Below the pieces are notes generated by a model that saw nothing but the letters and a program-made list of their open reading frames with translations, did not search any database and was not told the origin of the DNA. Position numbers and translations under genes: made by a program. 57,942 bases of DNA from Pseudomonadota bacterium. Its GTDB lineage: Bacteria; Bdellovibrionota; FAC87; UBA2466. Shown piece after piece: positions 25,814 through 57,942 of the stretch (positions are counted from its first letter, which is position 1; the number at the start of each line of letters is the position of its first letter). The stretch spans positions 1 through 57,942 of the forward strand of contig JAYSWN010000135.1 of NCBI GenBank assembly GCA_043718025.1. Reading direction: 5' to 3'.

Positions 25814-25888
25814 AGCCCCCCTCAGCGTGCCTACGCAAAGTGCTTTGGAGGCCGCCGCACGGTTAACGATGCTTCGGCCGCGGGCTTC

Positions 25889-26620
25889 TTAATTTTCGAG
25901 GCGAGTTCGGCAGCTGGCACTGGCTTTGACCAGTTCGGCACGCAATTCTTTTTGACTCTCCACGACGAAAGAATTCTCAATCCCGGTTACCGTTAACGGG
26001 CCGGTTTTGAAGGTCACCTGAATTTTATCGCAAAGTTGAACGGGTATCTCTACGACCAAAGACGCCTCCGCGGGTAGTCGGTCGAGGCTGGCCCCTTCGT
26101 CCAGAGAGATATCCCTACCGAAAGTAAGCGGCCCCCAGAATGTGCACCAGCCAGAGCATTGGGTTCCACCCGGTTGAAGCCTAAAAGCATCTCCAACCAG
26201 TATTTGGCCCTCTTCTTCGCCCTTTCGAACGAACGGGATTCTATCTATGGCACTGGCGAAGAAAGCATAATCCAAGGGTTTTCCGTATCTCGCCACGTGG
26301 TCGTGAGATTTAAAACGTGCTGGGCCGTCGATAAAGACTCGGTTTTCTCTGGGCTTTTTGAGCAACTGAATAGTGGCCTTAAGCTTTGACTCACTTGAAT
26401 AATCGCCAGAAACAGTAATTTGGTTGGCATTCGTATCGACGAAATGAAGTCTGATGGTGCCGTATTCGTTCTCTATGGACAGGGGGAGGCCTGGGCGCAC
26501 AGAGATAACCTGCTGGAATTTAGTTCCGACAATGGCAAACTCTTCGCGTTCGGTCGCGGCCTGAAGGACGAAAAGAGGGACGAAAAGGGCGGCAAATACA
26601 AAGCGTTTAATCTTCGACAT
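25889..26620 (-). CDS. Hypothetical secreted protein
   Basis: 243-aa ORF with RBS AGGAGG and a signal peptide (MSKIKRFVFAALFVPLFVLQA); no family recognised. Confidence 0.7.
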   Translation of the reverse strand: MSKIKRFVFAALFVPLFVLQAATEREEFAIVGTKFQQVISVRPGLPLSIENEYGTIRLHFVDTNANQITVSGDYSSESKLKATIQLLKKPRENRVFIDGPARFKSHDHVARYGKPLDYAFFASAIDRIPFVRKGEEEGQILVGDAFRLQPGGTQCSGWCTFWGPLTFGRDISLDEGASLDRLPAEASLVVEIPVQLCDKIQVTFKTGPLTVTGIENSFVVESQKELRAELVKASASCRTRLEN

Positions 26621-26754
26621 AGGGGCCTCCTGCACGTGGAAAGCGGTGTAGCACAGGGGGGTGCCCTGAGGAAGGAAAAGAACCTTTTTACAGGTAAGAA
26701 TTTACAGAGTTGGTCTAATTCAGTTGGGGAGGCCTAGTTTGATGAGTGAAAGGC

Positions 26755-26787
26755 AAAAAAAAGGAGCCAACCCGAGGGTGGCTCCTT
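26755..26787 (-). terminator. Rho-independent terminator after the Gly-rich lipoprotein gene
   Basis: On the minus strand, a stem AAGGAGCCA...TGGCTCCTT runs into a T-tract. Confidence 0.85.
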
Positions 26788-26812
26788 AAGTAAATCTTTG
26801 GAAAATACTGGG

Positions 26813-27196
26813 CTACCAGCCGACGTATCCGCCGCCGTTAGGGCCGCCCCAACTGACACTGCCACCGCCGTACTGACCGCCGCCGTACTGTCCGCCGCCG
26901 TACTGTCCGCCGCCGTACTGTCCGCCGCCGTACTGTCCACCCCAACCAATGTTGCCACCGCCGTACTGTCCACCACCGCCGTACTGTCCACCACCACCGT
27001 ACTGTCCACCACCGCCGAACTGGCCACCACCGCCGAACTGGCCATTGCCATTAGGATTTTGCTGTTGCGGATTAGTAGCAGGAGGCGGAATCGGGGGCGG
27101 GGGTGCCTGAGTCTGTTTTCCGCAGGCAGAAACGAGTAGTAGGATGGCTAGAAACGAAAGTGCTTTTTTGTGGGACTGATTTTTTGAAATCGACAT
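26813..27196 (-). CDS. Gly/Gln/Tyr-repeat lipoprotein
   Basis: Lipobox LVSA-C, a Pro-rich linker and GGG(G)Q[YF] repeats; has its own promoter, RBS and terminator. Confidence 0.85.
   Translation of the reverse strand: MSISKNQSHKKALSFLAILLLVSACGKQTQAPPPPIPPPATNPQQQNPNGNGQFGGGGQFGGGGQYGGGGQYGGGGQYGGGNIGWGGQYGGGQYGGGQYGGGQYGGGQYGGGSVSWGGPNGGGYVGW
26862..27041. repeat. Coding tandem repeats: five 15-bp and about five 18-bp units
   Basis: CCGCCGCCGTACTGT-type units at 26862-26936 and CCACCACCGCCG(T/A)ACTG(T/G)-type units at ~26952-27041. Confidence 0.95.
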
Positions 27197-27228
27197 GCAA
27201 GAACCCCCCTGGCTCGGTGGAGTCTCAG

Positions 27229-27244
27229 TGCAGATCGGATGCCA
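27229..27244 (-). promoter_or_regulatory. Sigma54 promoter of the Gly-rich lipoprotein gene
   Basis: The minus strand reads TGGCATCCGATCTGCA (GG-N10-GC), 33 nt upstream of the ATG. Confidence 0.7.
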
Positions 27245-27400
27245 GGCAAAGTGACTTCAACGGTCACAAACGGTTAGGAAAATGCCGTTTTTCGGCAGCT
27301 AACATTCCGTAGATTGTTCCAAATTCAATTCAAGCAGGAGTTTTGAGGTTTAGAGCCTAGGACGGCACGAAATCAATGCGGTTGGAGTCGCTAAATTACT

Positions 27401-27476
27401 TGGTGCGCCGGCCCGGACTTGAACCGGGGGCCCGCTGATTAAGAGTCAACTGCTCTACCAACTGAGCTACCGGCGC
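27401..27476 (-). tRNA. tRNA-Lys(CTT)
   Basis: GCGCCGGTAGCTCAGTTGGTAGAGCAGTTGACTCTTAATCAGC...GGTTCAAGTCC...GGCGCACCA forms a cloverleaf with anticodon CTT and encoded CCA. Confidence 0.97.
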
Positions 27477-27609
27477 GCGCTCAACAAACGTACTACGCAA
27501 CGTAAGTGGATGAGAAATAACCCAGAGCGTTGATTTTGTCCAGAAATGGCTCGCAGCGACAAGCCAACCAAGAAACTTCAAAACTATCTCTGAAAAGAGG
27601 GTTCGCTAA

Positions 27610-27740
27610 CCGAGAAAAGTGAGGGAGTTCTCACGGGCCCATTTGTTAAAAAATAGGCCCGTGAGAGGAGAGGGAAACCAACGAAAATGGGACCGGGTTC
27701 TCAAAGTAACTAGCGAAGCTTTGAGCACCTTGCCCCACAG
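27610..27740 (-). ncRNA. Candidate small RNA (two hairpins with a CU-rich linker)
   Basis: Hairpins at 27688-27737 and 27629-27666 whose G-U pairs form only on the minus strand, with a promoter-like motif directly upstream. Boundaries are approximate. Confidence 0.45.
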
Positions 27741-27745
27741 TGAGG

Positions 27746-27773
27746 TAACGGTTTACGGGCTTAATTTGTGACA
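27746..27773 (-). promoter_or_regulatory. ECF sigma-type promoter
   Basis: The minus strand reads TGTCACA-N16-CGTTA, close to the ECF41-type TGTCACA-N16-CGTC. Confidence 0.5.
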
Positions 27774-27782
27774 AGGCACCGC

Positions 27783-29273
27783 CTATTTTCTGCAAAGAAA
27801 TAATGCCCAGGGCCGCCAATGTAGGCGAATGAGCCGCTCAATCTCAGTGCCCCCAATCCAGTGAGAAATTTTGGCGTCTAGTGGCTTGCAATGGGGATGG
27901 CTGCGAAGAAAGATGCCTCCTTCTTCAAAGAGGTGAGCCGCCACGAAAAGGTCTTCGCCCCCGGCCTGAATTTTTTTATCGATGTCGAACTGGCTCACTC
28001 CCGTAAACACCTTGAGATCAGCGCGGCGGTAGAAAAAAGAGTTCTTACCGTGGAAGGCGTAGGGATCTTGCTCAAGGGAGTAAAGCCTATTCACTCCGTA
28101 ATTCCAGACTGAGCGAAATAACGGAATCTCCGATTGCGCGGGACTGACGGTGGCGTAGCCTAACGCAAATAGATTGGTGACTAACAGGATTGTGTAAAGA
28201 AAGCGAAGGGCCTGCGCTTGAAACAGTGTCGGTCGCGTTTCCACTAATTTTTGCATGGCGAGCAAAATTGGGATCCACGCGAAGCACGCCAGGGGGGACA
28301 GATCAACGAGCGCGCGTGGTGAGTAGAACAACAGAGAAAGAAAATAAAAAGCCGTGATCCAGGTGAGACTAAGTTTTGGTTTTTGGGTCCACGCCCACAA
28401 GCTTCCGAAAATGAGCGTAAGTCCCCACACCGGCGGCGATTCAGTGATTAGCCAGATAAAATAATTCCACCATGGCGCTGTTTCACCGGCGACGCGCACC
28501 AGAAAAAGGTGCTGATAAAAATAGGGCGCCGCGGGAAAAGCCCAGTGGCCATAACCCCAGCGATTTAAAAGGGCGACAAGTAAAAGGCCTACGACGCTAC
28601 CCGCTTTAAGCCAAGCGTGTGTGCTGATGCGGTTTCGTCCAAAACATAAAAACCAGACCGAGGCCGGAATTATTAGAAATAACGACCAGTAGTGGGCTTC
28701 AAACGCCAGCGCGATCAGCACGCCGCTGGCAAAGGCCGTCCAACGAGACAGACAACGGTCTTGCTGCACTGAGATTATCAGCGGCAAATAGGCCAAAAGA
28801 AAAAGGCTGCGGGAGACGCCTTCGGCAGAAAAACGGGCGCTAAGTAACGGCAGAAACCAGATCAGACTTAACCCAAACAGGACCACTTTTTTAAGCGGTG
28901 ACTCGTCGAACCAACCGTCGGCGGCTCGCATCAACGTGAGGGCGGCAAAGATGGCCAGCAACGCCGCCAGAATTCGTAGGGTGGTAGCGATGCAGAACGG
29001 ATCAAAATCAATGATCACGCTCGTCACTTTGGCGAGCGCCACCACCACGGCCGGGAGCAGCCAAGACTGACTTTTTAGTGCAACGGAATCGGGCAGTGCC
29101 TCTTTCGGAGTCAGTCCTAGTTTATAATTGGCGGTTTCGAGCACCATAAAGTGTTCGGCGGTATCGAGAAAGCCTTGAGAGAAAAAGGCGGCCGAGAGAT
29201 AAGTGAGAAAGAGCAGTAAAACGGCTAGACGGAACTGTTGTCGTGACTTTGATGGCGTGGACGAAGTGAACAT
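27783..29273 (-). CDS. Alg9/PIG-B-like (GT22-like) GT-C membrane glycosyltransferase
   Basis: About 11 TM segments, EHFMVLE in loop 1, SWLLP, RFSAEG, RWGYGHW and PWWNY. Start placed at ATG 29273. Confidence 0.7.
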   Translation of the reverse strand: MFTSSTPSKSRQQFRLAVLLLFLTYLSAAFFSQGFLDTAEHFMVLETANYKLGLTPKEALPDSVALKSQSWLLPAVVVALAKVTSVIIDFDPFCIATTLRILAALLAIFAALTLMRAADGWFDESPLKKVVLFGLSLIWFLPLLSARFSAEGVSRSLFLLAYLPLIISVQQDRCLSRWTAFASGVLIALAFEAHYWSLFLIIPASVWFLCFGRNRISTHAWLKAGSVVGLLLVALLNRWGYGHWAFPAAPYFYQHLFLVRVAGETAPWWNYFIWLITESPPVWGLTLIFGSLWAWTQKPKLSLTWITAFYFLSLLFYSPRALVDLSPLACFAWIPILLAMQKLVETRPTLFQAQALRFLYTILLVTNLFALGYATVSPAQSEIPLFRSVWNYGVNRLYSLEQDPYAFHGKNSFFYRRADLKVFTGVSQFDIDKKIQAGGEDLFVAAHLFEEGGIFLRSHPHCKPLDAKISHWIGGTEIERLIRLHWRPWALFLCRK

Positions 29274-31851: not shown

Positions 31852-32397
31852 ATGCCATTGCTAAAAGTTGCCGTGATGGGCCACCCCGTTTTACGCGAAG
31901 TCGCAAAGCCGGTGCCCGAGGCAGAAATTAAAACCCCGGAGTTTCAGCAGTTCTTACTGGATATGGCTGAAACCATGGATGAGTACGATGGACGCGGACT
32001 AGCCGCCCCCCAGGTTCACATCAGCCGTCAGGTGGTGTGTTTGATTTGGGACTTTGACCCAGATCGCGAGCCCTACCTCACGTATCTCATCAACCCTAAG
32101 ATCGAGGCGCTTACCAAAGACCTAAATTCCTATTGGGAAGGCTGTCTCAGCGTGCCGGGCCTGCGCGGCCGGGTAAGCCGCCCCAACCGCATTTCGGTCG
32201 AGGCGTTCAACGCCAAAGGGGAAAAAACCAGTTTTATTGCCGAAGGCTTTGCCGCTACCGTGGTCCAACACGAATGCGACCACTTGATGGGTAAACTATA
32301 CCTCGACCGAATGTCCGATATGAGGGATTTTGCCTTTTCCAAGGAGTACCAGAAGTACCATGTCGACCCGAATTCAGGAGCCGATCAGGAAGGGTAA
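31852..32397 (+). CDS. def: Peptide deformylase
   Basis: GRGLAAPQV, EGCLSVP and QHECDHL. Confidence 0.97.
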   Translation: MPLLKVAVMGHPVLREVAKPVPEAEIKTPEFQQFLLDMAETMDEYDGRGLAAPQVHISRQVVCLIWDFDPDREPYLTYLINPKIEALTKDLNSYWEGCLSVPGLRGRVSRPNRISVEAFNAKGEKTSFIAEGFAATVVQHECDHLMGKLYLDRMSDMRDFAFSKEYQKYHVDPNSGADQEG

Positions 32398-45661: not shown

Positions 45662-47143
45662 CTATTGAATAAATCTTTGCACCTGAGCCACCGTTGCCGA
45701 CTGCGGTAATTTCTCGGTGAGAAGGCCGGTAATCCATTTTCCAAGCGCCAAAGTGTTAAACGGAGTCGTAACCTGCTCTCCTACGTTACCGAGCCCGTGC
45801 CTGACTATGAGTGGTACCTGGGTATCATTGAAACCGTGATCTCCCGTAACAAAGACGACGGTACGATTGGCTAGCGGAGACGCATCAAGATGGCTGAAAA
45901 ATGAAGCTATCGTCTGATCAACCAAAGGCATGTTACTGGCGAGGATTTTCTCTTGTATCGCTTCCTTCAATATTTTTCCCTGTACCGCATCGAAGACAAT
46001 CGGATCGTGAGGAAACGGGTAATGGAGCACGATAAAATCTAAGTCGGGATCGGTTGCTATTTGCAGCGATCTTTGTATCTGCTGTTGAACTCGCTTTGGG
46101 TATTCGGCATTTCCGTGATTCCGTGCAAGCCTGATTTCGGAAATAAATTGTTGGATATTAGCCAAAACGTGCCGGCTGTAACTTGGCCTTTCTTCTTCAT
46201 GGAAAGGATATCGCTCACATTGAGAAAGATATCGCCCATAAAGCTGGCAAAAAGGGAGGGTATAGCCGATTACCGCCGAACGGATGCCAGTTTTGTGAAG
46301 ACGTTGGAAGAGATGTGAATCAAAATTAAACTCTTGATCACTTTGCGAACCCTCTAGTCGGTAGAGAAACTTTTTTTCTTTTGTCCAGCGCAGCGCGCCG
46401 GTCACTTTTTGTTCTTGGAAAAGGCTGACGAAGCTATTTATGGTTGAACGGCCAGGCGAATTAACGTTTGTAAAAGCAGTGTTCTTTTTTTCGAACTCTT
46501 GAAAAAAAGGAGATTTGGGTTTTCCGACTATTCGCCAGTACTTGTCTCCGTCACCCAAGCGGTCGAACACCATGAGAATCACTCGCGTTGAGCTGGTTCT
46601 CTGCGCGAGAATGGGAATTCTTTTCTTGCTGTCGACGAGGTTTTGGGAATCGACAGCCCGTACCGCTGCAGTTGCCGATAGAGTTAAAAAGAGAGGGAAA
46701 AACAGGGTTAGCGAAGCGCGCAGCAGATTGCTGGTTGGCAGCCGGAACTTTTTGCAGAACAGAAGAATCGGAAGCATCGCCACCAAAACAAACGCTAAGG
46801 CGACCGGTGCTGAAACATTAAGGTAGTGTCGAGCCGTATTTAGGAGGAAACAAGACAACAATGCGATTAAGGCGTTGCCCACTTGAGGCCCATGCGACGG
46901 AAAACGAGCCGCGAACCGTAAACAGGAAAAAACGACCCCAGCTACGAGTAACACCGTAAGCGGGAGGGCTAGCAACGCCGCCGGAGTTACGTCAAATGAC
47001 TCGAAGGTAAAAAAGGTTTCAACTGCGTACTTCGAGCGTTCAGTAAAATAGCCGCTTAGCAAAGAATGCCACTGTTTAATAAACAGGAGATTCGCCAAAG
47101 AGATCGAACAAATCAGGTCATTAGTTCGTCCCTTGAGTGTCAT
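45662..47143 (-). CDS. Membrane-anchored sulfatase/alkaline-phosphatase superfamily protein (LTA-synthase-like layout)
   Basis: About five N-terminal TM segments, MVFD, a Thr at the nucleophile position (SPGRSTINS), LHYPFPHDP and TGDHG. Confidence 0.75.
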   Translation of the reverse strand: MTLKGRTNDLICSISLANLLFIKQWHSLLSGYFTERSKYAVETFFTFESFDVTPAALLALPLTVLLVAGVVFSCLRFAARFPSHGPQVGNALIALLSCFLLNTARHYLNVSAPVALAFVLVAMLPILLFCKKFRLPTSNLLRASLTLFFPLFLTLSATAAVRAVDSQNLVDSKKRIPILAQRTSSTRVILMVFDRLGDGDKYWRIVGKPKSPFFQEFEKKNTAFTNVNSPGRSTINSFVSLFQEQKVTGALRWTKEKKFLYRLEGSQSDQEFNFDSHLFQRLHKTGIRSAVIGYTLPFCQLYGRYLSQCERYPFHEEERPSYSRHVLANIQQFISEIRLARNHGNAEYPKRVQQQIQRSLQIATDPDLDFIVLHYPFPHDPIVFDAVQGKILKEAIQEKILASNMPLVDQTIASFFSHLDASPLANRTVVFVTGDHGFNDTQVPLIVRHGLGNVGEQVTTPFNTLALGKWITGLLTEKLPQSATVAQVQRFIQ

Positions 47144-47241
47144 ATTTATTTAGAATTTAATTAATGGAAATATATCTCAGGGATGGTAACACTTCCGCTT
47201 TACGTCGACAACTACCTTAGTTTGCAAAGTTTTTCGCAGCA

Positions 47242-49533
47242 CTAAATGGTTTCCGCCAAGTCTGTAGAGTTTAACTTCGGCAACCAACGCAACGCGCGCT
47301 GTAAAATCCATACGTAAGCCTCGGGCACGCAGATTAGGCTCATTAGGCAAAAGATCAGTGTGACCATACTTACGATAAATAGCGCAGCGCGAATTGGATC
47401 TTGGGGAAAATTAATTTCCACCACGTTTTTTCCCGGCTCCAGATCGAAGCCGAGAAAGCCCGGCCCAACCCAGCGTGGAACGCCCTTCTTGCCATTGACC
47501 ATAATATTCCAGCGTGGGTGGTATCCGGTTCTCAGCATTCCCACCGCTCCCGCGGCCGTCTGTTCAAGCTCCGCTTTGTAGTTTCCGCTTTCCACTCTTT
47601 CCCAAGAGTTAACTTGGCCCCATACCCAGCCATGGCGCGGCACGTCGCTGGTTTTTTGCGCGGTAAGTTTTGGCACCGATTCGGGCCAGCGCTTTACCAC
47701 GGCGGCTGGAATGATGGCTGGGTAATGGCCCACTTGAGACTCAGGCCCCAACACCCAAGGAATCACCGCATCGAGGTAGAGTTGATCTTTAGGAACCAAC
47801 AAAACTTTATTCACCCCAACGACGTCAAACATACCCACCGCCGGCGTGGTGAAAACGGCGACCGCTTTATTGGAATAGATTTTTTTAAGAAAGGGCGGTG
47901 GCTGGTCTGAAGTCTTAAGAATTACCGACTGCACATTGAAAAGGCGGTAATGGTACTCACGTTTAAATTTGAACAGATGAGCCACTTCCGATGGGTAGCT
48001 CATATGATGGTGAATTTGGGCAATCTGGGGGTAATCAAAATAATCAGCGATAGTTTCATATCCGATTATTCCTAGATTGATCGCTTTCTCCGGTGCGTAA
48101 AAGTCGGGAGCCTTAAAATCAAGCACGGGCAACCATAGGCTTCCGCGCTTAAGCTCATTGTGCAGGCTTCCAAAAATTTGCGGGTCTAGGGTCTGATTGA
48201 TTTCTGCTTGGGTGCGGATTTTACTATCGGTATTTCTTAAAAATGTTGCTCGCTCGAAGAAAGGGTAACCAACTAAGGCGACGAGTAACAGCAAGGCAAG
48301 GCCGCGAACTAAAACAACTTCGCGGCGGCGTAAAGACCAGTCTGACAAAAACTCAATTCTGCCGCGAGCAAGGCTTAAGAAAAAACTGGCGCCTGTGGCG
48401 GCCAACAATATTAAGGCGATTTGAATCAATGAAGCCGTTCTCACGAGCATGATCTGACCAAAACCAGGAATCCAATCTAAGCGCGAGCCATAGCTAGTGC
48501 GCCCACTAAACAAGAGAACGCCTAGAATTAAAAACATAACGCCTACTCGTCCCGTCCGAAAAGTTCGAGTGGCCCCGGGGGCAAACGCAGAAAAAAAACC
48601 CACGTAGGCCAGTAGAGTGATTGTGTGTATTCGTTGCCAATCAAGGAGAGCTCCGCTGAGCACTAACTCCAGGGCTTTGCCAAAACCGAGCCCATCCCAG
48701 CGCTCACTGCCTTCAAAAGCGCTTTTCGCCAGGACTAATGGGCCGTCTTGAAGGACGCTGAGCAATTGGTAGCTACAGAGCAGAAGAAATAGTGCTGCGG
48801 TTACGACGCCCATTTTAATCAAGTCTCGAACTCGAATCCACTTGAGCACTGCGCCAAAAATTGCCAAAAACCCAAAACTTAAAAGCGCCATGTAGCCGTA
48901 AAAATGGTGCAGCAAAAAACTAAGACTTATCCAAAAACCTAACGGGAGAACTTGGCGAAGGGTGTTAGTTCGCGGATGTTTACCCCATCCCGTGAGCTTC
49001 GCACTCCAGGCCAAGGCCAAAAGGAAGGGACCAAAGGCAAGGGATTGAGTATAAAGACCGAAGCCACCTAAAAGATAGGACTGAAGCTGATGCGACATGT
49101 ACACCGTCGACGACAGCAAGGGGCAAAACCAAGCCACCATCAAGGCGCTATCACGAGAGTACCCCATGAGACGCGCGGCCCGATAGCCGGCGGGGCATTG
49201 CAGGGTTAGAGCTAACATTGTCACCAGGTGAAGGGAGCGAGAAGGATACGGCAGGCCGGCCGCCCAAGTGAATGCGGCCGCAAGGTAGTGGCCAAGATTT
49301 TGGTACGTGCGGAATGCCGAATTGCCTAAGGCGATCCCGTCTTCCCAGCTATCTAACCCCAAGTTGCCGTGTTTAAAGGCGGCGAGAATTCGATAAACCA
49401 TTCGCTCGTGGAGCGCAAAATCATTGTTATTGAAGCCACCGTATTGTCCCCCCTTCCACAGTAGGATTGCCCATAGCAAGGTAACCGCAAGCAGAACAAG
49501 GTGAGCGGGGCGCATATTTACATAGCGACGCAT
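47242..49533 (-). CDS. Large GT-C-like membrane protein (YfhO-like)
   Basis: About 13 TM segments, NDFALH in loop 1, and a YfhO-like C-terminus (GYHPRW...GFLGFDLEPGKNVVEINF). Start is ATG 49533 or 49515. Confidence 0.7.
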   Translation of the reverse strand: MRRYVNMRPAHLVLLAVTLLWAILLWKGGQYGGFNNNDFALHERMVYRILAAFKHGNLGLDSWEDGIALGNSAFRTYQNLGHYLAAAFTWAAGLPYPSRSLHLVTMLALTLQCPAGYRAARLMGYSRDSALMVAWFCPLLSSTVYMSHQLQSYLLGGFGLYTQSLAFGPFLLALAWSAKLTGWGKHPRTNTLRQVLPLGFWISLSFLLHHFYGYMALLSFGFLAIFGAVLKWIRVRDLIKMGVVTAALFLLLCSYQLLSVLQDGPLVLAKSAFEGSERWDGLGFGKALELVLSGALLDWQRIHTITLLAYVGFFSAFAPGATRTFRTGRVGVMFLILGVLLFSGRTSYGSRLDWIPGFGQIMLVRTASLIQIALILLAATGASFFLSLARGRIEFLSDWSLRRREVVLVRGLALLLLVALVGYPFFERATFLRNTDSKIRTQAEINQTLDPQIFGSLHNELKRGSLWLPVLDFKAPDFYAPEKAINLGIIGYETIADYFDYPQIAQIHHHMSYPSEVAHLFKFKREYHYRLFNVQSVILKTSDQPPPFLKKIYSNKAVAVFTTPAVGMFDVVGVNKVLLVPKDQLYLDAVIPWVLGPESQVGHYPAIIPAAVVKRWPESVPKLTAQKTSDVPRHGWVWGQVNSWERVESGNYKAELEQTAAGAVGMLRTGYHPRWNIMVNGKKGVPRWVGPGFLGFDLEPGKNVVEINFPQDPIRAALFIVSMVTLIFCLMSLICVPEAYVWILQRALRWLPKLNSTDLAETI

Positions 49534-49543
49534 AGTCAAAACC

Positions 49544-49588
49544 AAAAAAAAAGGGCCAACGAAATCGTATCCGATTTCGTTGGCCCTT
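49544..49588 (-). terminator. Strong Rho-independent terminator ending the three-secreted-protein operon
   Basis: Perfect 17-bp stem AAGGGCCAACGAAATCG / CGATTTCGTTGGCCCTT with a 4-nt loop and a T-tract on the minus strand. Confidence 0.93.
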
Positions 49589-49607
49589 CCGAATACATTA
49601 TTGCTTC

Positions 49608-50009
49608 TTAATCGCGATCTAAGGCGTCTTGTCGCTCGCTGGTTATCCCATCTTGGGACAATGGCTTAGACTCGCTGGTCGCCCTAACGGCTATGGTTGA
49701 GTACATTACAGAGCTCATTGCCAGAAAGGTTGTATTGTTAGCGGCAATAGCGTCTGGGGTTTTCAAGTCGTAGGCGCCTACTTTCATTTTTTTGTCCGCC
49801 TTTAGGTGTGTACCGGTTACGTTTCCACCATCGACGGCAATGAAGAAGGCAGAGCGCGTGGTGTCGGTGCCATAGGTCTGCTGGCCAGTTTTCATAAAGG
49901 TAGAGTCAGCAGCAAAGGGATCACCGTTATTACTAAAGTACTTCGGTGCAACGGCGCCAAGAGCAATGGTTGTAATAGTAGTAAAGAGAATTAATGGATA
50001 TTTAAGCAT
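49608..50009 (-). CDS. Hypothetical secreted protein, 133 aa, no Cys
   Basis: Signal-peptide-like N-terminus, RBS AGGA, Thr/Ala-rich. Confidence 0.75.
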   Translation of the reverse strand: MLKYPLILFTTITTIALGAVAPKYFSNNGDPFAADSTFMKTGQQTYGTDTTRSAFFIAVDGGNVTGTHLKADKKMKVGAYDLKTPDAIAANNTTFLAMSSVMYSTIAVRATSESKPLSQDGITSERQDALDRD

Positions 50010-50076
50010 GAATTTTCCTGTCTTTTGTAAATTTGTTTTTTTTATTAATTGTGTCCATGATTGCCATTGGCCAAAA

Positions 50077-50547
50077 TCACGGAGCTACGCACTGTTTCCA
50101 GAAGTAAGTGGTCACGCCATTTATTGTTTCGCTACATGTGGTCGTGCCTACTTTCTCCACATTACTGTAGAGCGTTCCAATGTTGTCTGCGGTGCCCTGC
50201 AAATAGACCGTAGCAAAGAACGCACCTATTCGGTCTGCGGAATGCAGGTTGCCCCGCATGTAATAGGTAGCGCTGGTTGAGTAGTTGCTGTCAGCCCCAG
50301 ACCCGCCTTCCACGCTTCCGCATTTGCCCGTACCGGTGGTGACACTCATGGTAGTTGCCTTCGGAACTTCGATGATCTGCTCTGCATTGTTTACATCACC
50401 AGGATAAGCAGCGCTGGCTGAAGCTACTTGAAGTAGTGTGTAGTTATGACCACCGGCGTCGACGCAAGCTGTTCTTGCGGCGAATACCGAAGCTGAGCTG
50501 AGCGTTGCCGCCACGATAAGAAAGTTAAATAATTTGTTTGGTTTCAT
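50077..50547 (-). CDS. Hypothetical secreted protein, 156 aa, 4 Cys (paralog of 50685-51308)
   Basis: Signal peptide ending VFA, RBS AGGA, and motifs shared with its neighbour. Confidence 0.85.
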   Translation of the reverse strand: MKPNKLFNFLIVAATLSSASVFAARTACVDAGGHNYTLLQVASASAAYPGDVNNAEQIIEVPKATTMSVTTGTGKCGSVEGGSGADSNYSTSATYYMRGNLHSADRIGAFFATVYLQGTADNIGTLYSNVEKVGTTTCSETINGVTTYFWKQCVAP

Positions 50548-50600
50548 TTTTTTCCTAAACCTTTTCTCCCAAAAAACTTTTTGTGGATGTTGATATTTAA

Positions 50601-50651
50601 TGAACCGCCCCAGGTTTGATCCGTATTTTTGCGGACTTCCGGGGCGGTTCT
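50601..50651. repeat. 50-bp palindromic intergenic element
   Basis: Perfect 10-bp inverted repeat GAACCGCCCC (50602-50611) / GGGGCGGTTC (50641-50650) around an inner TCCGTA/TGCGGA stem. Confidence 0.85.
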
Positions 50652-50684
50652 AAATTAATGAGGAATAAATTGACCCAGACCGAA

Positions 50685-51308
50685 TCAATCGTCGTTTTCT
50701 TTGCCATCACCGCACATGCGGCAAAAATAGCGATACCCACTGGCCGCATCGGCGTCGGCGATTTTACATACGGTCTTAGAGGTGGCGGATCCAGCCCCAG
50801 CGTCGTTTAAGAAGTAAGCGCGGTTGAATTTTACGCCGTTTCTTTTGAGGTTGGCTTTGATGTAAGCGCTAGGAGCGAAACGAGGAGGCATGACACGGTC
50901 GTTGTTTACCAGCACCTGCGTGTGGCCGTGGTAGGTGGTCGGCCGCCCATCGCGGTTGTTTACCGAAAATTCATCAACATCGGTGTCGCCGTTATCGCGT
51001 TTAGCACATTCGCCCGTTCCAGCCGAGAGATTGAGCGACGCAGTGCCTTGTGGGGGCGCGTCTAGAATATAGACGATGTCATTGGTTTTCGGGGTCGTGG
51101 TGATGAAGCTGCCTTCGTAGGCACGAATCTTGGTGGTTAAAGTCGAGCAATCAGTACCGGTCAGATCACCTTCGCCCCGTACTTCAACCAAAAAGTAGCT
51201 GCGGCTGGTGACGCTGATCGGACAGGCCCTAACCGGCAATGCGGCATTAAGATTTGCGGCGGCTAAAGACAAGCCGGCGAGTAAAATATGAAGTTTACCT
51301 ATTCTCAT
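50685..51308 (-). CDS. Hypothetical secreted protein, 207 aa, 6 Cys
   Basis: ATG 51308 with RBS GGAG, signal peptide ending LNA, and motifs shared with 50077-50547. Confidence 0.85.
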   Translation of the reverse strand: MRIGKLHILLAGLSLAAANLNAALPVRACPISVTSRSYFLVEVRGEGDLTGTDCSTLTTKIRAYEGSFITTTPKTNDIVYILDAPPQGTASLNLSAGTGECAKRDNGDTDVDEFSVNNRDGRPTTYHGHTQVLVNNDRVMPPRFAPSAYIKANLKRNGVKFNRAYFLNDAGAGSATSKTVCKIADADAASGYRYFCRMCGDGKENDD

Positions 51309-51416
51309 TAGTTTCTCCGTAGATGTTATTTGAAAGGGCGTTTCGCAAAACTTCGCAAGGAGAGTAAGACCAACAGAGGGGACGATCGCGACGCCTGCGG
51401 TTTTTATCGAACATAA

Positions 51417-51446
51417 ATTATAGGTGGCTGGGGTTGACCAGCACAA
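51417..51446 (-). promoter_or_regulatory. Sigma70-type promoter of the secreted-protein operon
   Basis: The minus strand reads TTGTGC-N18-TATAAT (perfect -10), about 110 nt upstream of the first ATG. Confidence 0.5.
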
Positions 51447-51479
51447 GACTCGATGCGTAGTACACTTGGGGCTCAGCTA

Positions 51480-53162
51480 TCAGGGAAGTAGCCAGACGGT
51501 ATTGGTTCCATCATCTTTTATTAGTCGGGCGTCGGGGAATCGTAGGTACATAAAAGCATTTTCGGCCAAGCGGCTCGTCCCCGCAAAAATCCAACGCGGA
51601 TCCCTTAGAAAAGGGTCATTTTGAATCAGGTCAAAGGAGTAATATCCGCCATATTCGTTGATGAAACAGATTTGCTTCACGCTTTTTTTAAGACAGGGGC
51701 TCTGCCGCTGATGTTGAGTGATGTAACTATCTACCTGGGCCAAACGGAGCGCACTAATAACGGTGAGGCTTATCAGCACGAGACACGCCACCGCCTTTGA
51801 CCAGGCCGTGTCTTTATTCCTACCCACCATCGCGCCCGCCGCGAGCACCGGCACCACGCCCCAAGCGGAGTGAAAAAAACGAAAGCCCCAACCGTTTTGT
51901 TGGGTAAGTACAACGAACGAATAGCCAACCAAGGTCATTAGGGCGCTGTACAGGAGAAGGCGCAAATAAATTGAGGATCGTGCGTGCTTCATGCCGATCA
52001 ACGCCAGCACCGGAAGCCCCGGCACCGCCCACGTTACCAGTCTCATTAGATCAATTAAACGATTTCCTAAAATTGTTTGGTTAGGTAGAGAGAAAGTGAA
52101 GCTGGTACGGGGAAGTAGATCCGTTAGCGTGCGTCCGACCACTCCATCGACTGAATTAGGCACTACGGAGCCCATTCCCTGACCCCCGAGGCCAATTCGA
52201 AAAAAAAACCAGCCAAAGCCAAGCGTGAGAACCAGCGGGGCGTAGCCTGCAAACAGCAAGGCAAGGTTTTTAAAACGTTCTGGTCGTAGAGCCAGCCAAA
52301 GCACCCAGGGGGTGCCAAATAAAAGGTGCGGAAAGGGGTGATGGAGAACCAACGCCAATGATCCCACCGCGCCCGCCGCAAGTAATCGTTTGTTGGTTGT
52401 TTCAATTAGTAGCGAAGCAAAGAGTAGATTCAAAAATAGATGACCACTCATTGTGAAGTAAGAAAGTGCATTCACCGAAAAAGCGGGCGAGGCCAGGGCA
52501 AAAAGCATGGCCCAGCCGGCCGCGGCTTTATCAGAAAAAATTTTTCGCGCCAGGTATCCGACTAGCACTACAGATCCGGCGCCAAAGAGCGCATTTAAAA
52601 GCCAGGGCAACCCGATCTTCATGAAAGGGGCTAGCAAAAGTGCGAAGCCCGGCCAGTAAAAGGAAACGAACTTACCGCTTACGGGGGAAACTTCAAAAAA
52701 CCAGCCGATGTATAAGGGAGGCAAAAATCGATTGATGAGTTGGGGGGGGAATTGGCCAGTCAGTTTACCTTCGGCAAATATCTTAGCCTGGGTGTAGACC
52801 GAAAACTCGTCTGCCGATAACGGGACGTCGTGATAGACCAGGCGCGCCAGAACGGCCAAAACTAGAAACACGAGCGTTCCTACCGCAACGGGGTGGTCAG
52901 CGATTTTATCCACCCCCTCTTCAATGGCCGCGGCGGGTAAAGTTCTGGCTAGGAATACACAACAAACCAGCGCCATCAATAAACTGATTGCTCCCAATAA
53001 ATCTTGCTGCGAAAACCAAAGCATATCGGCGATGATGTTTTTAAAACCATTGGTTTCGTTAAGGGGCGCCACCTTCCTGGCGGCTAACCAACTGGTGATG
53101 GCGCAGAGCAAAGTAAGGCAAAATGACGGATAGATTAATTTTTCGTAAGTCGTTTTATCCAT
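51480..53162 (-). CDS. GT-C-like (ArnT/PMT-type) membrane glycosyltransferase
   Basis: About 13 TM segments, acidic SADE motif in the extracytoplasmic loop, YWPG and WGFRFF. Confidence 0.7.
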   Translation of the reverse strand: MDKTTYEKLIYPSFCLTLLCAITSWLAARKVAPLNETNGFKNIIADMLWFSQQDLLGAISLLMALVCCVFLARTLPAAAIEEGVDKIADHPVAVGTLVFLVLAVLARLVYHDVPLSADEFSVYTQAKIFAEGKLTGQFPPQLINRFLPPLYIGWFFEVSPVSGKFVSFYWPGFALLLAPFMKIGLPWLLNALFGAGSVVLVGYLARKIFSDKAAAGWAMLFALASPAFSVNALSYFTMSGHLFLNLLFASLLIETTNKRLLAAGAVGSLALVLHHPFPHLLFGTPWVLWLALRPERFKNLALLFAGYAPLVLTLGFGWFFFRIGLGGQGMGSVVPNSVDGVVGRTLTDLLPRTSFTFSLPNQTILGNRLIDLMRLVTWAVPGLPVLALIGMKHARSSIYLRLLLYSALMTLVGYSFVVLTQQNGWGFRFFHSAWGVVPVLAAGAMVGRNKDTAWSKAVACLVLISLTVISALRLAQVDSYITQHQRQSPCLKKSVKQICFINEYGGYYSFDLIQNDPFLRDPRWIFAGTSRLAENAFMYLRFPDARLIKDDGTNTVWLLP

Positions 53163-53278: not shown

Positions 53279-53689
53279 TTAGTGCGACTGCCGTCGACAA
53301 GCCCTTCCACAAAACTTAGCGGCGAAGATAACGACGGCTTGCAAAGTAGCGATGGCCAAGAATAGGCGCGTTAGCTGACGAAGCCAGAAGGTCTCAGTTG
53401 AAATGCCGTTCACGAATGTGACAAGGCCCAAAATATTTTTTGGGGTCACCCAGCCGTCGTGGAAAAGATTTCGATCGCCCTTGGTGAGGTAGGTAGACTC
53501 TGGCCCCCCGTGGTGGATTTGGATCACTCGATGGCACAGTACCCTTTGTGATTTTCGAAACGCGATGAGATCTCCCACCCGAATTTCAGCAACGCAATCT
53601 TGAATACCCTCGACCAGGCTACCGTGGGGAATGGTTGGCCATTGGCTGTGGCCGAGGCAAGGTAATACAAATTTTTTGACCGAGCTCAT
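53279..53689 (-). CDS. S24/S26-family peptidase (Ser/His type)
   Basis: GHSQWPTI (GxSMxP-like), GDLIAF, CHRVI and TKGDRN...DG. Confidence 0.85.
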   Translation of the reverse strand: MSSVKKFVLPCLGHSQWPTIPHGSLVEGIQDCVAEIRVGDLIAFRKSQRVLCHRVIQIHHGGPESTYLTKGDRNLFHDGWVTPKNILGLVTFVNGISTETFWLRQLTRLFLAIATLQAVVIFAAKFCGRACRRQSH

Positions 53690-53740: not shown

Positions 53741-55126
53741 ATGCAAAATCAGACTGCCCCATCGCCGCGCTTTCGCCTGTCGTTTCTAATCTGCATTTTC
53801 GTTTTGGCTTGTGCACTACGTTTTGGCCTCGCCGCGGTGAATCGCGAGGCCATGGATGACCACTACGGTGACGTGATTAAACCACTACTGGAAGGTAAAG
53901 TTCCCTTCACCACCATTGGCAAATACCACCCAAAGTTTTTCCACATTACGGCGGTAATGGTCATCAAGGTGCTGGGAGTGGATTCTGCAGCGCACCGAAT
54001 TGTGGTGTGCCAGCTCATCAATGCTTTGGTGGGAACGCTTACTTTTGCTCTGCTGCTCTTATTTCTAATGAGATTGAACTTAGATTGGGTTGTGTTGAAA
54101 TGGCTGAGCCTTTTTTTAGCTTTCTCCCCGGGCCTCATTGCGTTCAACGCGATGGGCTCAAATGACACGTTCGTCATTTTCTTTTCTGTGGTTTCTACGC
54201 TTAGTCTTAGTTTTCTATTTTCAGAAAAATCGACGGTTAAAACGTCAATAATTTCTCTGCTTGTGGCCACCGTGGCCGTTTATTTGGCAATCGCAACCAA
54301 GGGAAATGGGTTGGTGATTGGGTTTTGCGCCATTCTCTATTCCGGCGCGTTGGTGGCACTGGCGATTTACCGAAAAAAATCGGTAATTATTCCCTTAGCG
54401 GCGTTCACTTTTTTAGGATTGGCCTCTACCTATTCCGTAGCTCACAATACGGTCTACTTTTATCATCCTGCTTACTACCGCCTTTTGAATTCCGATCGTT
54501 CGGTTATCGGCCCTTACACTGGACTTCCGAAAGGGGTTCGGTCTGATTCGCTCTATGGCAAACGGGCCCTAACCCAGGCCTTTTTTACTTTTCCGCTGAG
54601 CGCGCTTTTAGTGACACCCGTGGCCTCTTACGGTGCTCCCTTTAGTCACATGTATTCGTACTGGGCGCAAGTTTACGGCAATGCGACCTTCAGTCGATTT
54701 GCTTACTGGCCTCCAACTTGGCGTCGGGGCGACCGGTGGCTCCCGTGGATCGGGCGGGCTCAGTATCTTCTCAACGTGGTTCCGGTGTTAATTCTAGTTT
54801 GGGCAACTTTTCATCTGGCCCTTGGGTCGATGGATCTTAGCCAAACCAGCGAGGGTCGGGTGGGCAGGTTTTGTGCCTTCGTAACCTTGGCACACGTAGC
54901 AGCGGGAATGAGGTACTTCACCATTTTTCTCTCGTTCGTGTTCGCAAAATTTATTTACGTAGCCCCGTTTTTGGCGGCGGCCGTGTATTGTTTTGCTTGG
55001 GGGCTTCAGCGCATTGTGCGGCGGCAAGATAGGCGGGCGACGCAATTTTTGGGAGCGGTTTTCAACAGCTTGGCAATTGTGAACCTCGTCGACGTTCTGA
55101 TGCTGATCAGGGATCTAAATACCTGA
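53741..55126 (+). CDS. GT-C-like (ArnT/PMT-type) membrane protein
   Basis: About 11 TM segments, MDDH in loop 1, YHP, SND and ATKG. Confidence 0.65.
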   Translation: MQNQTAPSPRFRLSFLICIFVLACALRFGLAAVNREAMDDHYGDVIKPLLEGKVPFTTIGKYHPKFFHITAVMVIKVLGVDSAAHRIVVCQLINALVGTLTFALLLLFLMRLNLDWVVLKWLSLFLAFSPGLIAFNAMGSNDTFVIFFSVVSTLSLSFLFSEKSTVKTSIISLLVATVAVYLAIATKGNGLVIGFCAILYSGALVALAIYRKKSVIIPLAAFTFLGLASTYSVAHNTVYFYHPAYYRLLNSDRSVIGPYTGLPKGVRSDSLYGKRALTQAFFTFPLSALLVTPVASYGAPFSHMYSYWAQVYGNATFSRFAYWPPTWRRGDRWLPWIGRAQYLLNVVPVLILVWATFHLALGSMDLSQTSEGRVGRFCAFVTLAHVAAGMRYFTIFLSFVFAKFIYVAPFLAAAVYCFAWGLQRIVRRQDRRATQFLGAVFNSLAIVNLVDVLMLIRDLNT

Positions 55127-55894
55127 CGCAGGTAACTTAAGCTTACCCGACAGCGACTCAATTCCGTGCGACCATCCCACCAATATAGTTTCAGCGATAG
55201 TTCGCGGGTGGGCTTTAAACCGCCCGGCTTCGATCTTACCCGACGTATTGGCCGCGTGCATTCGGTAGCGAACCAACGGCACAGAAATCAAAAAAATGGA
55301 AAACAACTTTAGCACCCGAATCAAATAATCAACGTCGTGCGCCACCTTTAGGGTCTCGTCAAATCGCCCCACTTCCTCAAATACGCGTCGCCTAAAAACG
55401 TGCAACCAGAGGGCGCAAAGAAAAACGCCGGGTTGAAAATTAGGGTTGACCAAATCGGTAAAATTAACCGGTCCGGTGGAGGCGGTCACAGGGTGAAATA
55501 CATCTTCAAACCGGCCCAGTACTCGGTTCTCGCCGTCGATAATATCGGCAACTTCTCCCCGTACGACGGAGAATTCTGGGTTTGCTTTCAGGTACCCCAG
55601 GGCACGGCTTAGCCCTTCCGGTACGGCCAGATCATCGTGATCGAGAAAAGCGACAAACTCACCCCGCGCAAGGCTGAGAGCGCGATTGTAGGAGGCCGCG
55701 ATGCCTCGGCTTGTTTCGGAGCGTACCAGGGTAACGGGGAGATCCTTGATGGTTTCGAATGAGCCGTCAGTTGATCCATCGTCAATCACCAAAATTTCGG
55801 TTGAGGGTAAGCATTGGCTCAGCACACTCTGAACGGCCGCCCGCAGAAATTTTGTTCCGTTTTTGGTGGGAATGATAATGGAAAGTTCACACAT
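55115..55894 (-). CDS. GT2-family glycosyltransferase
   Basis: SIIIPTKN, VIDDGSTD, AFLDHDD and FDE...HD; 8-nt overlap with the upstream gene. Confidence 0.93.
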   Translation of the reverse strand: MCELSIIIPTKNGTKFLRAAVQSVLSQCLPSTEILVIDDGSTDGSFETIKDLPVTLVRSETSRGIAASYNRALSLARGEFVAFLDHDDLAVPEGLSRALGYLKANPEFSVVRGEVADIIDGENRVLGRFEDVFHPVTASTGPVNFTDLVNPNFQPGVFLCALWLHVFRRRVFEEVGRFDETLKVAHDVDYLIRVLKLFSIFLISVPLVRYRMHAANTSGKIEAGRFKAHPRTIAETILVGWSHGIESLSGKLKLPASGI

Positions 55895-57236
55895 GCTGAA
55901 GCGACTCCTGCTGCGTAAACTCGTAAAGAAAATTCTCGATTTCCGTAATCATCGGTAAGACTCGATAGACGTCTTGTGGATTTTCGAAAGAGAAATCAAA
56001 AGCCTTTTTTAGATGTCGTGATAGCGCGGTGGTGAGGGGAAGAGTGGCTTGTGACGTCTCTTCGATCAGGGCCCGGTCGGCGCTGACAAGTCGCGAAGTG
56101 AGCATCATGGCATTTGCGCATAGGTCTAGAGTAAATAGGCGGTGATCGTTTAGCGGAGATCCGATGCAGGCCCCACGAATGAGATGAAGGTTGGTCATCA
56201 AAAGCTCTTGAAGGCGATAGAAGTAAACCGCCCTCAGTTTTGTACGATTTTGATTTTCATTCTTCCAAAGCTGTTGCTGCAGCCGCATTGGATGCCAACC
56301 CGAGGTGAGCGCCTCGTACATCGCCGGAGAAACAGGGATTGTTAAGAGAGAGGGGTTGGGTCGATTTCTGTTTTGATGTAGGTTGCGATAGAAGCGGTGC
56401 AATTTCAGTTCTAACTGTGATTTTTCAAGGGGCCAATCGGACCAAATTTTTAAGTTAGGCCAAGGAGCCGTTTGCCGGTTGGTGGCCACGCCGGCATCGA
56501 CCGAAACTATCGTCAGCTGGGGCGAGGGCAAGCGCTCGGCGTTAGCCGCTTGGGCAAGCTCATTCATTTTCAAATAGGCATCAACCAGGGTGGAGCACAG
56601 CGTTCGCCGTTGGTTGCACGGTGTGCAGTCGTGCCACTGAATCTCGGCGACCTTCTTCAAATCGCGTAACGCCGTTCGGTAGTGAAATTGTTCTTTTTCG
56701 CGCGGATCAAACTCAACTAGCGTTGACCAAGCATTACAATAGCGGTCAAAAGCATACGCAAATCGAGCGCCGTAGGAAGCCGGGTACACTCTGTTTTTTG
56801 CCGTGGCGGCCCACCCATTTTCTGTGAACCGTCGCGAGCGTTCAAACCAGTGAAGTGGGCCCGGAATCCGGTGTTTCAAATTCCAAAGGGCCGATGACAC
56901 CACTTGGATTTCGCCGAGGATGGGTACGAGTCTGCGTAAGTTGAGATAGGTTTTACGAAGACCTTTTAAATTTTCGCTGCCTTGATTTAAGACCAGCAGC
57001 AGATCGATATCGGAGACTACGGGTGTCCACTCCCTAATCATTCCCCCCACCAGGTGAACTTCACTTACCTCTGCACAGCGCGCTAATCGATTGGCGCAAT
57101 ATTTGGCTGAGCTATCGTAATAGAACTTAGCCAACTCTAAAAAAGACGGTACTTGGATTAAACGCGAAGCCACGTGGCGAATGGTCGCCGGTATTCGCGG
57201 AGGGGAACTGTTTTGTGGCGTGGAGAAAGTATTCAT
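55887..57236 (-). CDS. Pol-beta-superfamily nucleotidyltransferase-domain protein
   Basis: VHLVGG-x9-SDIDLLLVL matches the hG[GS]...DxD signature, with a third carboxylate candidate in GEIQV. Start is ATG 57236 or GTG 57257. Confidence 0.75.
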   Translation of the reverse strand: MNTFSTPQNSSPPRIPATIRHVASRLIQVPSFLELAKFYYDSSAKYCANRLARCAEVSEVHLVGGMIREWTPVVSDIDLLLVLNQGSENLKGLRKTYLNLRRLVPILGEIQVVSSALWNLKHRIPGPLHWFERSRRFTENGWAATAKNRVYPASYGARFAYAFDRYCNAWSTLVEFDPREKEQFHYRTALRDLKKVAEIQWHDCTPCNQRRTLCSTLVDAYLKMNELAQAANAERLPSPQLTIVSVDAGVATNRQTAPWPNLKIWSDWPLEKSQLELKLHRFYRNLHQNRNRPNPSLLTIPVSPAMYEALTSGWHPMRLQQQLWKNENQNRTKLRAVYFYRLQELLMTNLHLIRGACIGSPLNDHRLFTLDLCANAMMLTSRLVSADRALIEETSQATLPLTTALSRHLKKAFDFSFENPQDVYRVLPMITEIENFLYEFTQQESLQHV

Positions 57237-57314
57237 CGATTCTGGACAGGCTACCACTTTGTGCCTAGACTAAAAGCCGTTTACCGGCAGTTTTGGGTAA
57301 TTTTGGGAGCTAAT

Positions 57315-57713
57315 ATGGAATTGCGCACCGTGACTCTTTCTGACGCCGTGGTTTTTAGAAAAGTGGGTACCGAACTGATTGCAATTCACACTCGGACCGG
57401 AAAGTTTTATTACTTTTCAGAAGAGACCAATTCTTTTTTCTCCTTTTTTCAGCGTGACGCTACGCTAAACGAATTTTTTCAGGCAAACGAACTTACCGGA
57501 AGTTCCCCTGAGTTTTTGTTGGAGCGCGAATACCTTGGGTCATTTCTTGAACAGTTGGTTTCTCTAGGGCTTTTTGAAGCGGGGAAAACTCTGGCCGCGG
57601 AAGTAAAACTGGCCGATGGAGATATTTTAGGATCTAAGTATAAGAAGCCTAAGTATTTGCGTTGCGGAGAGACAAACCTGGACGAAGTGACTTTCGCCTT
57701 TCTTTACCCTTAA
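57315..57713 (+). CDS. PqqD-family (RiPP recognition element) protein with a C-terminal leader-like extension
   Basis: RBS GGAG before ATG 57315. VVFRKVGTELIAIHTRTGKFYYFSE fits the three-strand wing, followed by helices ending FLEQLVSLGLF. Confidence 0.8.
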   Translation: MELRTVTLSDAVVFRKVGTELIAIHTRTGKFYYFSEETNSFFSFFQRDATLNEFFQANELTGSSPEFLLEREYLGSFLEQLVSLGLFEAGKTLAAEVKLADGDILGSKYKKPKYLRCGETNLDEVTFAFLYP

Positions 57714-57942
57714 TTTAATAAAAACGGTACCTACTTACTTCCGGCCAGCAATTAATTCTCGATTAACATCGGCCAAAGGTAAGGGGGGATACCCTTGTCT
57801 TCATGGGTAACTCTGTTCCTTTAGGATCTTTCTACGAGTTTCCTTAGAGGGTGTTTCAAAACCTTATGTAGAGCCGCGTTCCTGTCATTACCGAGCCTGC
57901 GTAGCAGGCGCGGCAACCTTTGGCCTGCTTGGTTTTGTCGAC

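Follow-up and report, generated by a model that had tools for sequence, protein, structure and literature searches.

The window, the whole stretch of 57,942 nucleotides that was analyzed, is contig C41 of a 4.14-Mb genome (G000; 92% complete) whose named relatives are labelled Bdellovibrionota. Near its right-hand end an unbroken plus-strand reading frame (57315-57713) encodes a protein of 132 residues, composed of an RRE domain, a linker and a leader-like tail, with the C-terminus YKKPKYLRCGETNLDEVTFAFLYP directly before the stop codon (Table 1); the codon of Tyr109 begins at 57639. The ATG at 57315, preceded by GGGAG at a spacing of 5 nt, was preferred over an upstream GTG (57174) because of this site and because the alignment with the closest homolog begins at residue 1. 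A sigma-70-like site at 57243-57271 was at chance level (one seen, 0.7 expected from shuffles). The contig stops 229 bp past the stop codon, inside a repeat: these last 229 bases gave 45 BLAST pieces in the genome, and they include a dispersed repeat with many genome copies, frequently at contig ends and at a depth of 140-380 versus 11 (run X2), which accounts for the break of C41. Positions 55000-57748 were matched gap-free by a contig of a run that is possibly the source of the window itself and is not independent support, and a contig from an independent study spanned 57504-57654 gap-free, reaching only 16 bases beyond the start of the tail at a depth of 2, and was not counted.

Table 1. 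Features of the RRE-tail gene and its surroundings in the window.
Feature	Residues	Position	Strand	Basis or remark
RRE/PqqD-type domain, lasso B1-like	1-90	57315..57584	+	profile versus TbiB1, Foldseek, VIA-align, AF2
Variable linker	91-108	57585..57638	+	entropy 3.24 bits, pLDDT 67-69
Leader-like segment Tyr109-Glu124 (YKKPKYLRCGETNLDE)	109-124	57639..57686	+	entropy 1.80 bits, modelled strand 114-118; predicted groove docking
Putative core VTFAFLYP and stop		57687..57713	+	boundary placed from the LPP register
Pol-beta-type nucleotidyltransferase (NTase)-like protein		55887..57257	-	divergent from RRE gene; S-D-x-D invariant in 9/9 homologs
GT2 glycosyltransferase		55115..55894	-	PF00535 E 6.7e-28
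Membrane GT-C type glycosyltransferase (PMT-like)		53741..55126	+	PF02366 E 1.8e-6; TIGR03663 E 5.9e-10, below cut-off
S26 protein, homolog of archaeal-type signal peptidase I; candidate for leader cleavage		53279..53689	-	TIGR02228 E 7e-15, over cut-off
Envelope genes upstream of S26		45662-53162		sulfatase-like and YfhO-like membrane proteins among them
Dispersed repeat, ~105 bp		57838-57942		contig end

The NTase-like protein of the window gave a weak match to PF01909 (E 0.048), its paralog on contig C74 a stronger one (E 7e-4), and the profile of the NTase family retrieved no solved relative by sequence. The S26 gene lies 3.6 kb from the RRE-tail gene, beyond an opposite-strand gene; Ser15, His53 and Asp78 are invariant in 8/8 sequences, and the S26 family profile matched SEC11A (E 8.8e-9). 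We infer that the GT-C gene also belongs to the cassette. Neither an HprK-like kinase nor an ABC pair was found near the RRE-tail gene in the window, where the contig end lies so close downstream, and the best HprK-like kinase match of the genome is on C74. The envelope region upstream of the S26 gene also encodes three small secreted-looking proteins and a 560-aa membrane protein, all without Pfam match.

A second cassette was observed on C74 (28707-36011; L061). It comprises an ABC ATPase, an ABC-2 permease, an S26 protein, the NTase paralog, an unknown protein of 394 aa, a membrane protein and the HprK-like kinase. It also contains a very divergent RRE-like ORF (31924-32376), whose tail keeps K-P, G, D-T and I-A-S at the same spacing (HHalign probability only 4.6%).

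The 132-aa protein gave no Pfam and no NCBIfam match, and a word-indexed search returned the query alone. An exhaustive search with the same query retrieved 49 proteins at E<=0.001, 48 of which were aligned (24-46% identity to the query); P0048, an 839-aa repeat protein with no matched stretch, was left out of all alignments and counts. The best PDB match of the single protein was already TbiB1 (E 0.41), and the profile of the 48 family members matched TbiB1 with E 1.3e-5. The AF2 model from the single sequence (pLDDT 47.5) was useless, whereas with the 48-row alignment mean pLDDT was 86.4 and residues 11-90 exceeded 90. Foldseek of this model returned 5v1v, TbiB1 bound to its leader, as top match (E 8.6e-4), VIA-align likewise placed TbiB1 first (Z 10.1, rmsd 3.3, 87 aligned), and PqqD-named clusters made up 26/30 of the ESM Atlas matches. 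The model is a winged helix, three strands in a sheet and then three helices, that superimposes on known RREs. Residues 1-90 therefore form an RRE fold, although Pfam and NCBIfam miss the domain; PF05402 was not over cut-off in the 132-aa protein, and only 1/48 family members matches it (E 3.2e-5).

Across the 48 proteins the tail is better conserved than the RRE and the linker less, with a mean column entropy of 1.80 bits for residues 109-124, 2.20 for the RRE and 3.24 for the linker, which is 11-24 aa long (mostly 15-18). The tail consensus is YxRPxFLRxGExxLDE; the 4-17 residues after it most often read I-x-F-L-C-P. The spacing from Y to E is fixed in 47/48 rows and length varies freely right after E124 (4-17 aa, 47 rows), which is the leader/core pattern of RiPP precursors. 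The C-terminal piece is very short, as described in the first-pass annotation, with 8 residues in the window protein and, in 21/47 rows, six residues with Pro at position 6. P0002 shares its final 8 residues with the window protein at an overall identity of 46%. Tyr, Pro and Gly stand at the lasso spacing (0, +3, +9), as had been pointed out, and Thr at +17 instead of +15. The column counts were Y 38-39/48, P 47/48, G 30/48, L122 42/47 and T126 12/47; position +15 is E/Q/D in 43/47 rows and a small residue (A/T/S) follows two places later in 36/47. The earlier proposal that this Thr is the -2 residue of a lasso leader with the core AFLYP does not agree with these counts.

The motif alone is weak, since [YW]xxPx[hydrophobic]xxxG occurs no more than 45 aa from the stop in 123/100,308 stop-to-stop frames of the genome. 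Because the first search had been selected with the tail in the query, the search was repeated with a profile of the RRE only (12 loci). All 19 matches (100-132 aa), several of which are the profile's own rows, carried a tail, 16 of them with the strict pattern and 3 diverged, confirming the expectation that homologs would conserve it. The 401 genomes of the phylum gave 13 strong matches (E<1e-19) in 12 genomes, every one within the order of the window (38 genomes); seven weaker short matches that were read are ordinary RREs of 88-102 aa without a tail, and four in 690-aa frames were left out. RRE, linker and tail form one conserved reading frame, a layout seen in 12 genomes and, after removal of redundancy at 80% identity, in 66 proteins. 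The linker of the window gene has no in-frame ATG, GTG or TTG, and no internal start is common to the 13 fusion genes, one of which has a linker GTG with an SD-like site. Two short metagenome contigs with a family gene had no informative neighbours.

In the 66 non-redundant proteins, 38 end in Pro, and the residue before it is Cys in 23, Tyr in 8 and Ser in 5, that is 36/38 versus a background of 13%. The exchange points to a possible modification site at this position, since three unlike residues that replace each other there share a nucleophilic side chain. A quick tree of the 66 proteins, from an alignment in which some linker was left, was poorly resolved (2/63 branches starred) and gave no order of C/Y/S exchanges.

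In the AF2 model the tail forms a strand at 114-118, within a block (111-120) of pLDDT 90 that is flanked by the less certain linker and by an end piece, modelled as a C-terminal helix (122-129), of pLDDT 54-64. Structural alignment to NisB with the NisA leader extended to residue 121 of the model and residue 1020 of the chain (93 and 229 for another NisB entry); NisB itself is 993 aa long, so that chain residue 1020 is likely in the bound leader. Alignment to TigE paired model residues 2-115 with TigE 3-467, so that residue 115 coincides with TigE 467, and the last 7 residues of TigE (to 469) are described as sitting in its own RRE groove (PMC10878394). In the numbering of linear polyphosphorylated peptides (LPP), the model strand 114-118 spans positions -11 to -7, which in the reported LppB-LppA crystal pair with the RRE sheet (PMC13381572). 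The tail is therefore predicted to dock as an extra strand in the cleft between strand 3 and helix 3, in agreement with the docking anticipated from the sequence.

In LPP the RRE presents a YxxP leader to a SpI-like peptidase, which cleaves 16 residues past the Tyr; the leader carries Y-16, P-13, V-11, L-10, F-3 and E-2, with the cut after T-1 (PMC13381572). There, L-10 and the last three residues are described as needed for cutting, and L-10 and F-3/E-2 as dispensable for RRE binding (PMC13381572). In this register the family has Y in 38/48 rows, P in 47/48, F/L/Y at -11 in 48/48, L/I at -10 in 45/48, L/I at -3 in 45/47 and D/E at -2 in 38/47, whereas HQ, I-5, T-1 and Ser3 of the LPP consensus (YxxPxVLxHQxIxFETxxS) are unmatched in the tail. 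The agreement at -10, -3 and -2, together with the length variation after -1, leads us to infer a cut near Glu124. The exact site is uncertain, because -1 is E/Q/D and not the Thr of LPP and a small residue stands two places later.

The 13 fusion loci, the window and L016-L027, come from 12 genomes and several are cut by contig ends. S26 was found in 11 of them, the NTase family in 10, GT2 in 12, an ABC ATPase cluster in 6 and an HprK-like kinase in 4; by Pfam, a SAM methyltransferase is fused to S26 in three loci and adjoins it in two. One of the fuller clusters, G034:C3, combines the core ITFLCP with a kinase, a methyltransferase, a GT4 and ABC genes. The S26 subfamily (E<1e-20) was present in 11/12 genomes with the fusion and in 0/26 without it, counts that refer to kin, not to independent genomes, 8 of the 11 positive ones having supplied rows of the S26 profile. 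G001, G016 and G019 lie outside the profile, yet all have the subfamily. In G019 the lone fusion gene stands beside groEL, with S26 and NTase adjacent to each other on another contig, and G026 has a fusion gene and no S26 match. The NTase family is less specific, with a match in 20/38 genomes, including genomes without the fusion gene. Its members at L104 and L108-L114 adjoin genes of glycosyltransferases or methyltransferases, no RRE was detected there, and the family may act on sugars. In G037 the NTase gene (L016:7823-8976) lies in two frames, a frameshift or an assembly error.

The coincidence of an HprK-like kinase with a Ser/Thr core looked suggestive (L016, L018, L023, L024) but was given no weight, three of these four loci being close kin. 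Radical SAM enzymes occur in 1/13 fusion loci (L019:1693-6326), where a fusion gene with a 14-residue Ser/Thr-rich end, a long core, lies beside a B12-dependent radical SAM gene and a radical SAM/SPASM gene. This suggests that the type of core may go with the enzyme set.

Split layouts were found through two weak S26 matches in fusion-free genomes and through second copies elsewhere. In G002:C3 (same genus as G000) and G011:C91 a small ORF accompanies a discrete PF05402 RRE, a GT2 and an S26-NTase fusion, the small ORFs ending in YKKPTLQSPEKLDCFFMS or YSSPKVSTAIKIQGFYLT (CFFMS or GFYLT); the catalytic residues of the split-type S26 domains were read by eye. The enzyme set of the fusion loci is thus paired here with a free YxxP peptide, which also ends in a few aromatic residues and whose leader is two residues shorter than that of the fusion. 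The peptide gene precedes the RRE gene in split loci, indicating that the fusion did not arise from simple read-through of that order. The split systems L103:7427-9208 and L105:3926-7090 encode S26-NTase fusion proteins and free peptides with only about 5 residues after the leader, and the GT2 of L103 ends in a PqqD-like domain (E 1.8e-4).

A profile of the tail detected no free peptide with the fusion leader in the genome of the window or in the 16 loci scanned. A looser scan recovered free precursors in 5/5 split or LPP-like loci, and in 15 fusion-related regions it found nothing beyond the fusion genes and a scatter of small frames without a shared pattern. LPP-like clusters with longer free peptides are present in G020:C61, G016:C26 and G000:C173. 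The last of these (24237-28281; L118) is conventional, with a PF14907 NTase, S26, an HprK-like kinase, a discrete PqqD protein and a radical SAM-like gene; its free peptide has a YHKPTV leader and two core Cys, and a close peptide is found in G016:C26. Another type of tailed PqqD protein, PF05402 followed by a [FY]xPPx[LF] tail, adjoins an HprK-like kinase and a PF14907 NTase in L028 (9756-10202) and L029 (9630-10292), with a D-P-I-H motif in L029. Self-leadered RREs thus seem to comprise several families, this type being one and the family of the window another, which is a clade of Bdellovibrionota whose core is unusually short.

The first-pass annotation had offered two options, a released short peptide and a self-occupied RRE acting as a scaffold; both stay live, and we lean towards release. 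The protein would then be a self-presenting RiPP precursor that is cut near Glu124 to give VTFAFLYP (typically ITFLCP), probably modified before the last Pro. Judging from the model, YKKP-K-Y-L-R-C-G would bind between strand 3 and helix 3, like lasso and LPP leaders, and by analogy with LPP the occupied RRE would present the segment after the strand to the enzymes of the cluster. The NTase and GT2, and elsewhere a GT4, a methyltransferase or the HprK-like kinase, would likely modify the residue before the terminal Pro (Tyr131) or, alternatively, the Thr/Ser at core position 2. The S26 Ser/His/Asp peptidase would cut after L-D-E, the presumed counterpart of F-E-T in LPP, or perhaps one or two residues later, which would release a peptide of 5-8 residues. 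An ABC-2 exporter, on C74 in this genome, might ship the product, although this is a guess. Each product would use up one RRE, which would fix the ratio of RRE to precursor strictly at 1:1 and keep other cellular YxxP peptides out. The glycosyltransferase setting, as in LPP and paeninodin clusters, suggests a surface or signalling role of the product. Against release, the end piece is short and fairly conserved (I-x-F-L-x-P), which as modelled would also fit a docking helix.

The strongest alternative is an uncut and permanently self-occupied RRE serving as a carrier or docking hub, which we regard as possible though rather unlikely. Its four-stranded sheet and C-terminal helix would recruit the NTase, the glycosyltransferases and the S26-fold protein, and the tail might be modified, for example as a sugar-chain primer, with no free peptide product. 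Such a role would suit the end modelled as a helix, the -1 residue unlike that of LPP, the GT2, GT4, GT-C and ABC-2 neighbours typical of surface glycan loci and the frequent fusion of S26 to a methyltransferase or NTase; on the other hand, the S26 triad is invariant and S26 tracks the fusion across genomes, length is free after position -1, and the split versions use a free peptide. In a more far-reaching reading, the protein would stand for a RiPP class whose precursor, equipped with its own RRE, is a disposable carrier on which the NTase and glycosyltransferases build a nucleotide or sugar decoration at the penultimate Cys, Tyr or Ser before the signal-peptidase-like enzyme clips off a glyco- or nucleotidyl-peptide of 5-8 residues for export. 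We put this forward as a speculation and consider it unlikely.

It is quite improbable that the tail is an autoinhibitory pseudo-leader displaced by the real substrate. The precedent is TigE, for which the authors suggest self-regulation by the groove-bound last 7 residues (PMC10878394). A separate precursor could be missing from a genome that is 92% complete and from a contig that ends so soon after the gene, and C173 of this genome carries the gene of a free YxxP peptide. However, that peptide has its own RRE and S26, no free peptide with the fusion leader was found in the 13 fusion loci or in G000, and the conserved L-D-E and F-L-[C/Y/S]-P, which lie past the groove, would be superfluous in a plug.

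The first-pass annotation had described an RRE with its own lasso-leader-like peptide; the fusion stood, with a conserved tail and modelled docking, whereas the lasso reading is already largely refuted. A fused lasso peptide precursor (B1-A) would agree with the Y/P/G spacing and with a lasso B1 protein as best structural match, but we consider it very improbable. The Thr is unconserved (12/47), PF13471 (B2 peptidase) is absent from the 92% complete genome, PF00733 matches lie on other contigs, and neither a cyclase nor B2 was found among the 76 neighbour proteins scanned. A core of 5-8 residues without Asp or Glu could not close a ring; in the window protein it has at most 8 residues with no Asp/Glu after position 124, as the first-pass annotation had anticipated in calling it too short. 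A chance motif or a frameshift or read-through artefact joining two genes is scarcely credible, for although the motif stands near stops 123 times in the genome, the one-frame layout of 66 non-redundant proteins and 12 genomes, with no internal start in common, rules out the two-gene frameshift.

RREs have been described as discrete proteins or enzyme fusions, with the precursor always separate in the parts of these reports available to us (PMC7470986, PMC12710340), the second of which puts at 21% the share of PF05402 proteins that are larger than a discrete RRE yet have no other domain. An RRE fused to its own precursor was not found described in the literature searched, in which subscription papers were largely outside coverage, and the RRE-Finder data sets of the two reports may list such fusions unremarked. 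In a natural RRE-leader-core chain, precursor finders that seek a small neighbouring ORF will report none. The precursor reading favoured here would offer a one-protein substrate of 6-8 residues for probing what NTases and glycosyltransferases do in LPP- and paeninodin-like clusters, and peptide engineers would gain a naturally occurring example of a substrate that presents itself. If the reading as a disposable, decorated carrier is true, the RRE/S26/NTase cassettes in polysaccharide loci would be tied to protein-primed glycoconjugate synthesis, and their nucleotidyltransferases would have a defined minimal substrate.

We regard the RRE-tail protein as a probable variant of the LPP-like, S26-processed RiPPs. 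With LPP (LppA/K/B/S/D/N, Paenibacillus) it shares a YxxP leader on a lasso-like RRE, an archaeal-type signal peptidase with Ser/His/Asp, the spacing to a hydrophobic -3 and an acidic -2 residue, a nucleotidyltransferase and a transporter, the lack of a lasso cyclase and a setting among glycosyltransferase genes. It differs in being a single chain with a core of 4-17 aa, whereas in LPP the RRE is discrete and the precursor, of 35-200 aa with a long core, is a protein of its own. The HprK kinase is core there, while here it stands near 4/13 fusion loci and is absent at the window; the NTase is PF01909-like and not PF14907 (except in L024), the exporter ABC-2 and not MsbA-like, and the host belongs to Bdellovibrionota and not Bacillota. 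The final product of LPP is left unidentified in the part of the report available (PMC13381572).

TigE, a radical SAM enzyme (8VPO; PMC10878394), likewise holds its own C-terminal tail in the RRE groove, and the modelled tail superimposes on it; as described there, TigE has 469 residues, is plugged by 7 of them and acts on a substrate that is a different molecule, whereas the fusion RRE has no enzyme domain and its tail runs on into a processing-like motif. The lasso B1 proteins (TbiB1 5v1u/5v1v, TfuB1 6jx3) and paeninodin-type systems share the fold, the YxxPx-hydrophobic motif and G at +9, but here B2, the cyclase, a conserved Thr(-2) and a ring-forming core are lacking and the leader is covalently attached. 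Enzyme-precursor fusions such as fungal borosins and plant BURP-domain precursors likewise join the substrate peptide to a component of the machinery in one chain. Their fused component is a catalyst, whereas that of the RRE-tail protein is an adaptor that recognizes but does not catalyze, with the enzymes acting from outside the chain.
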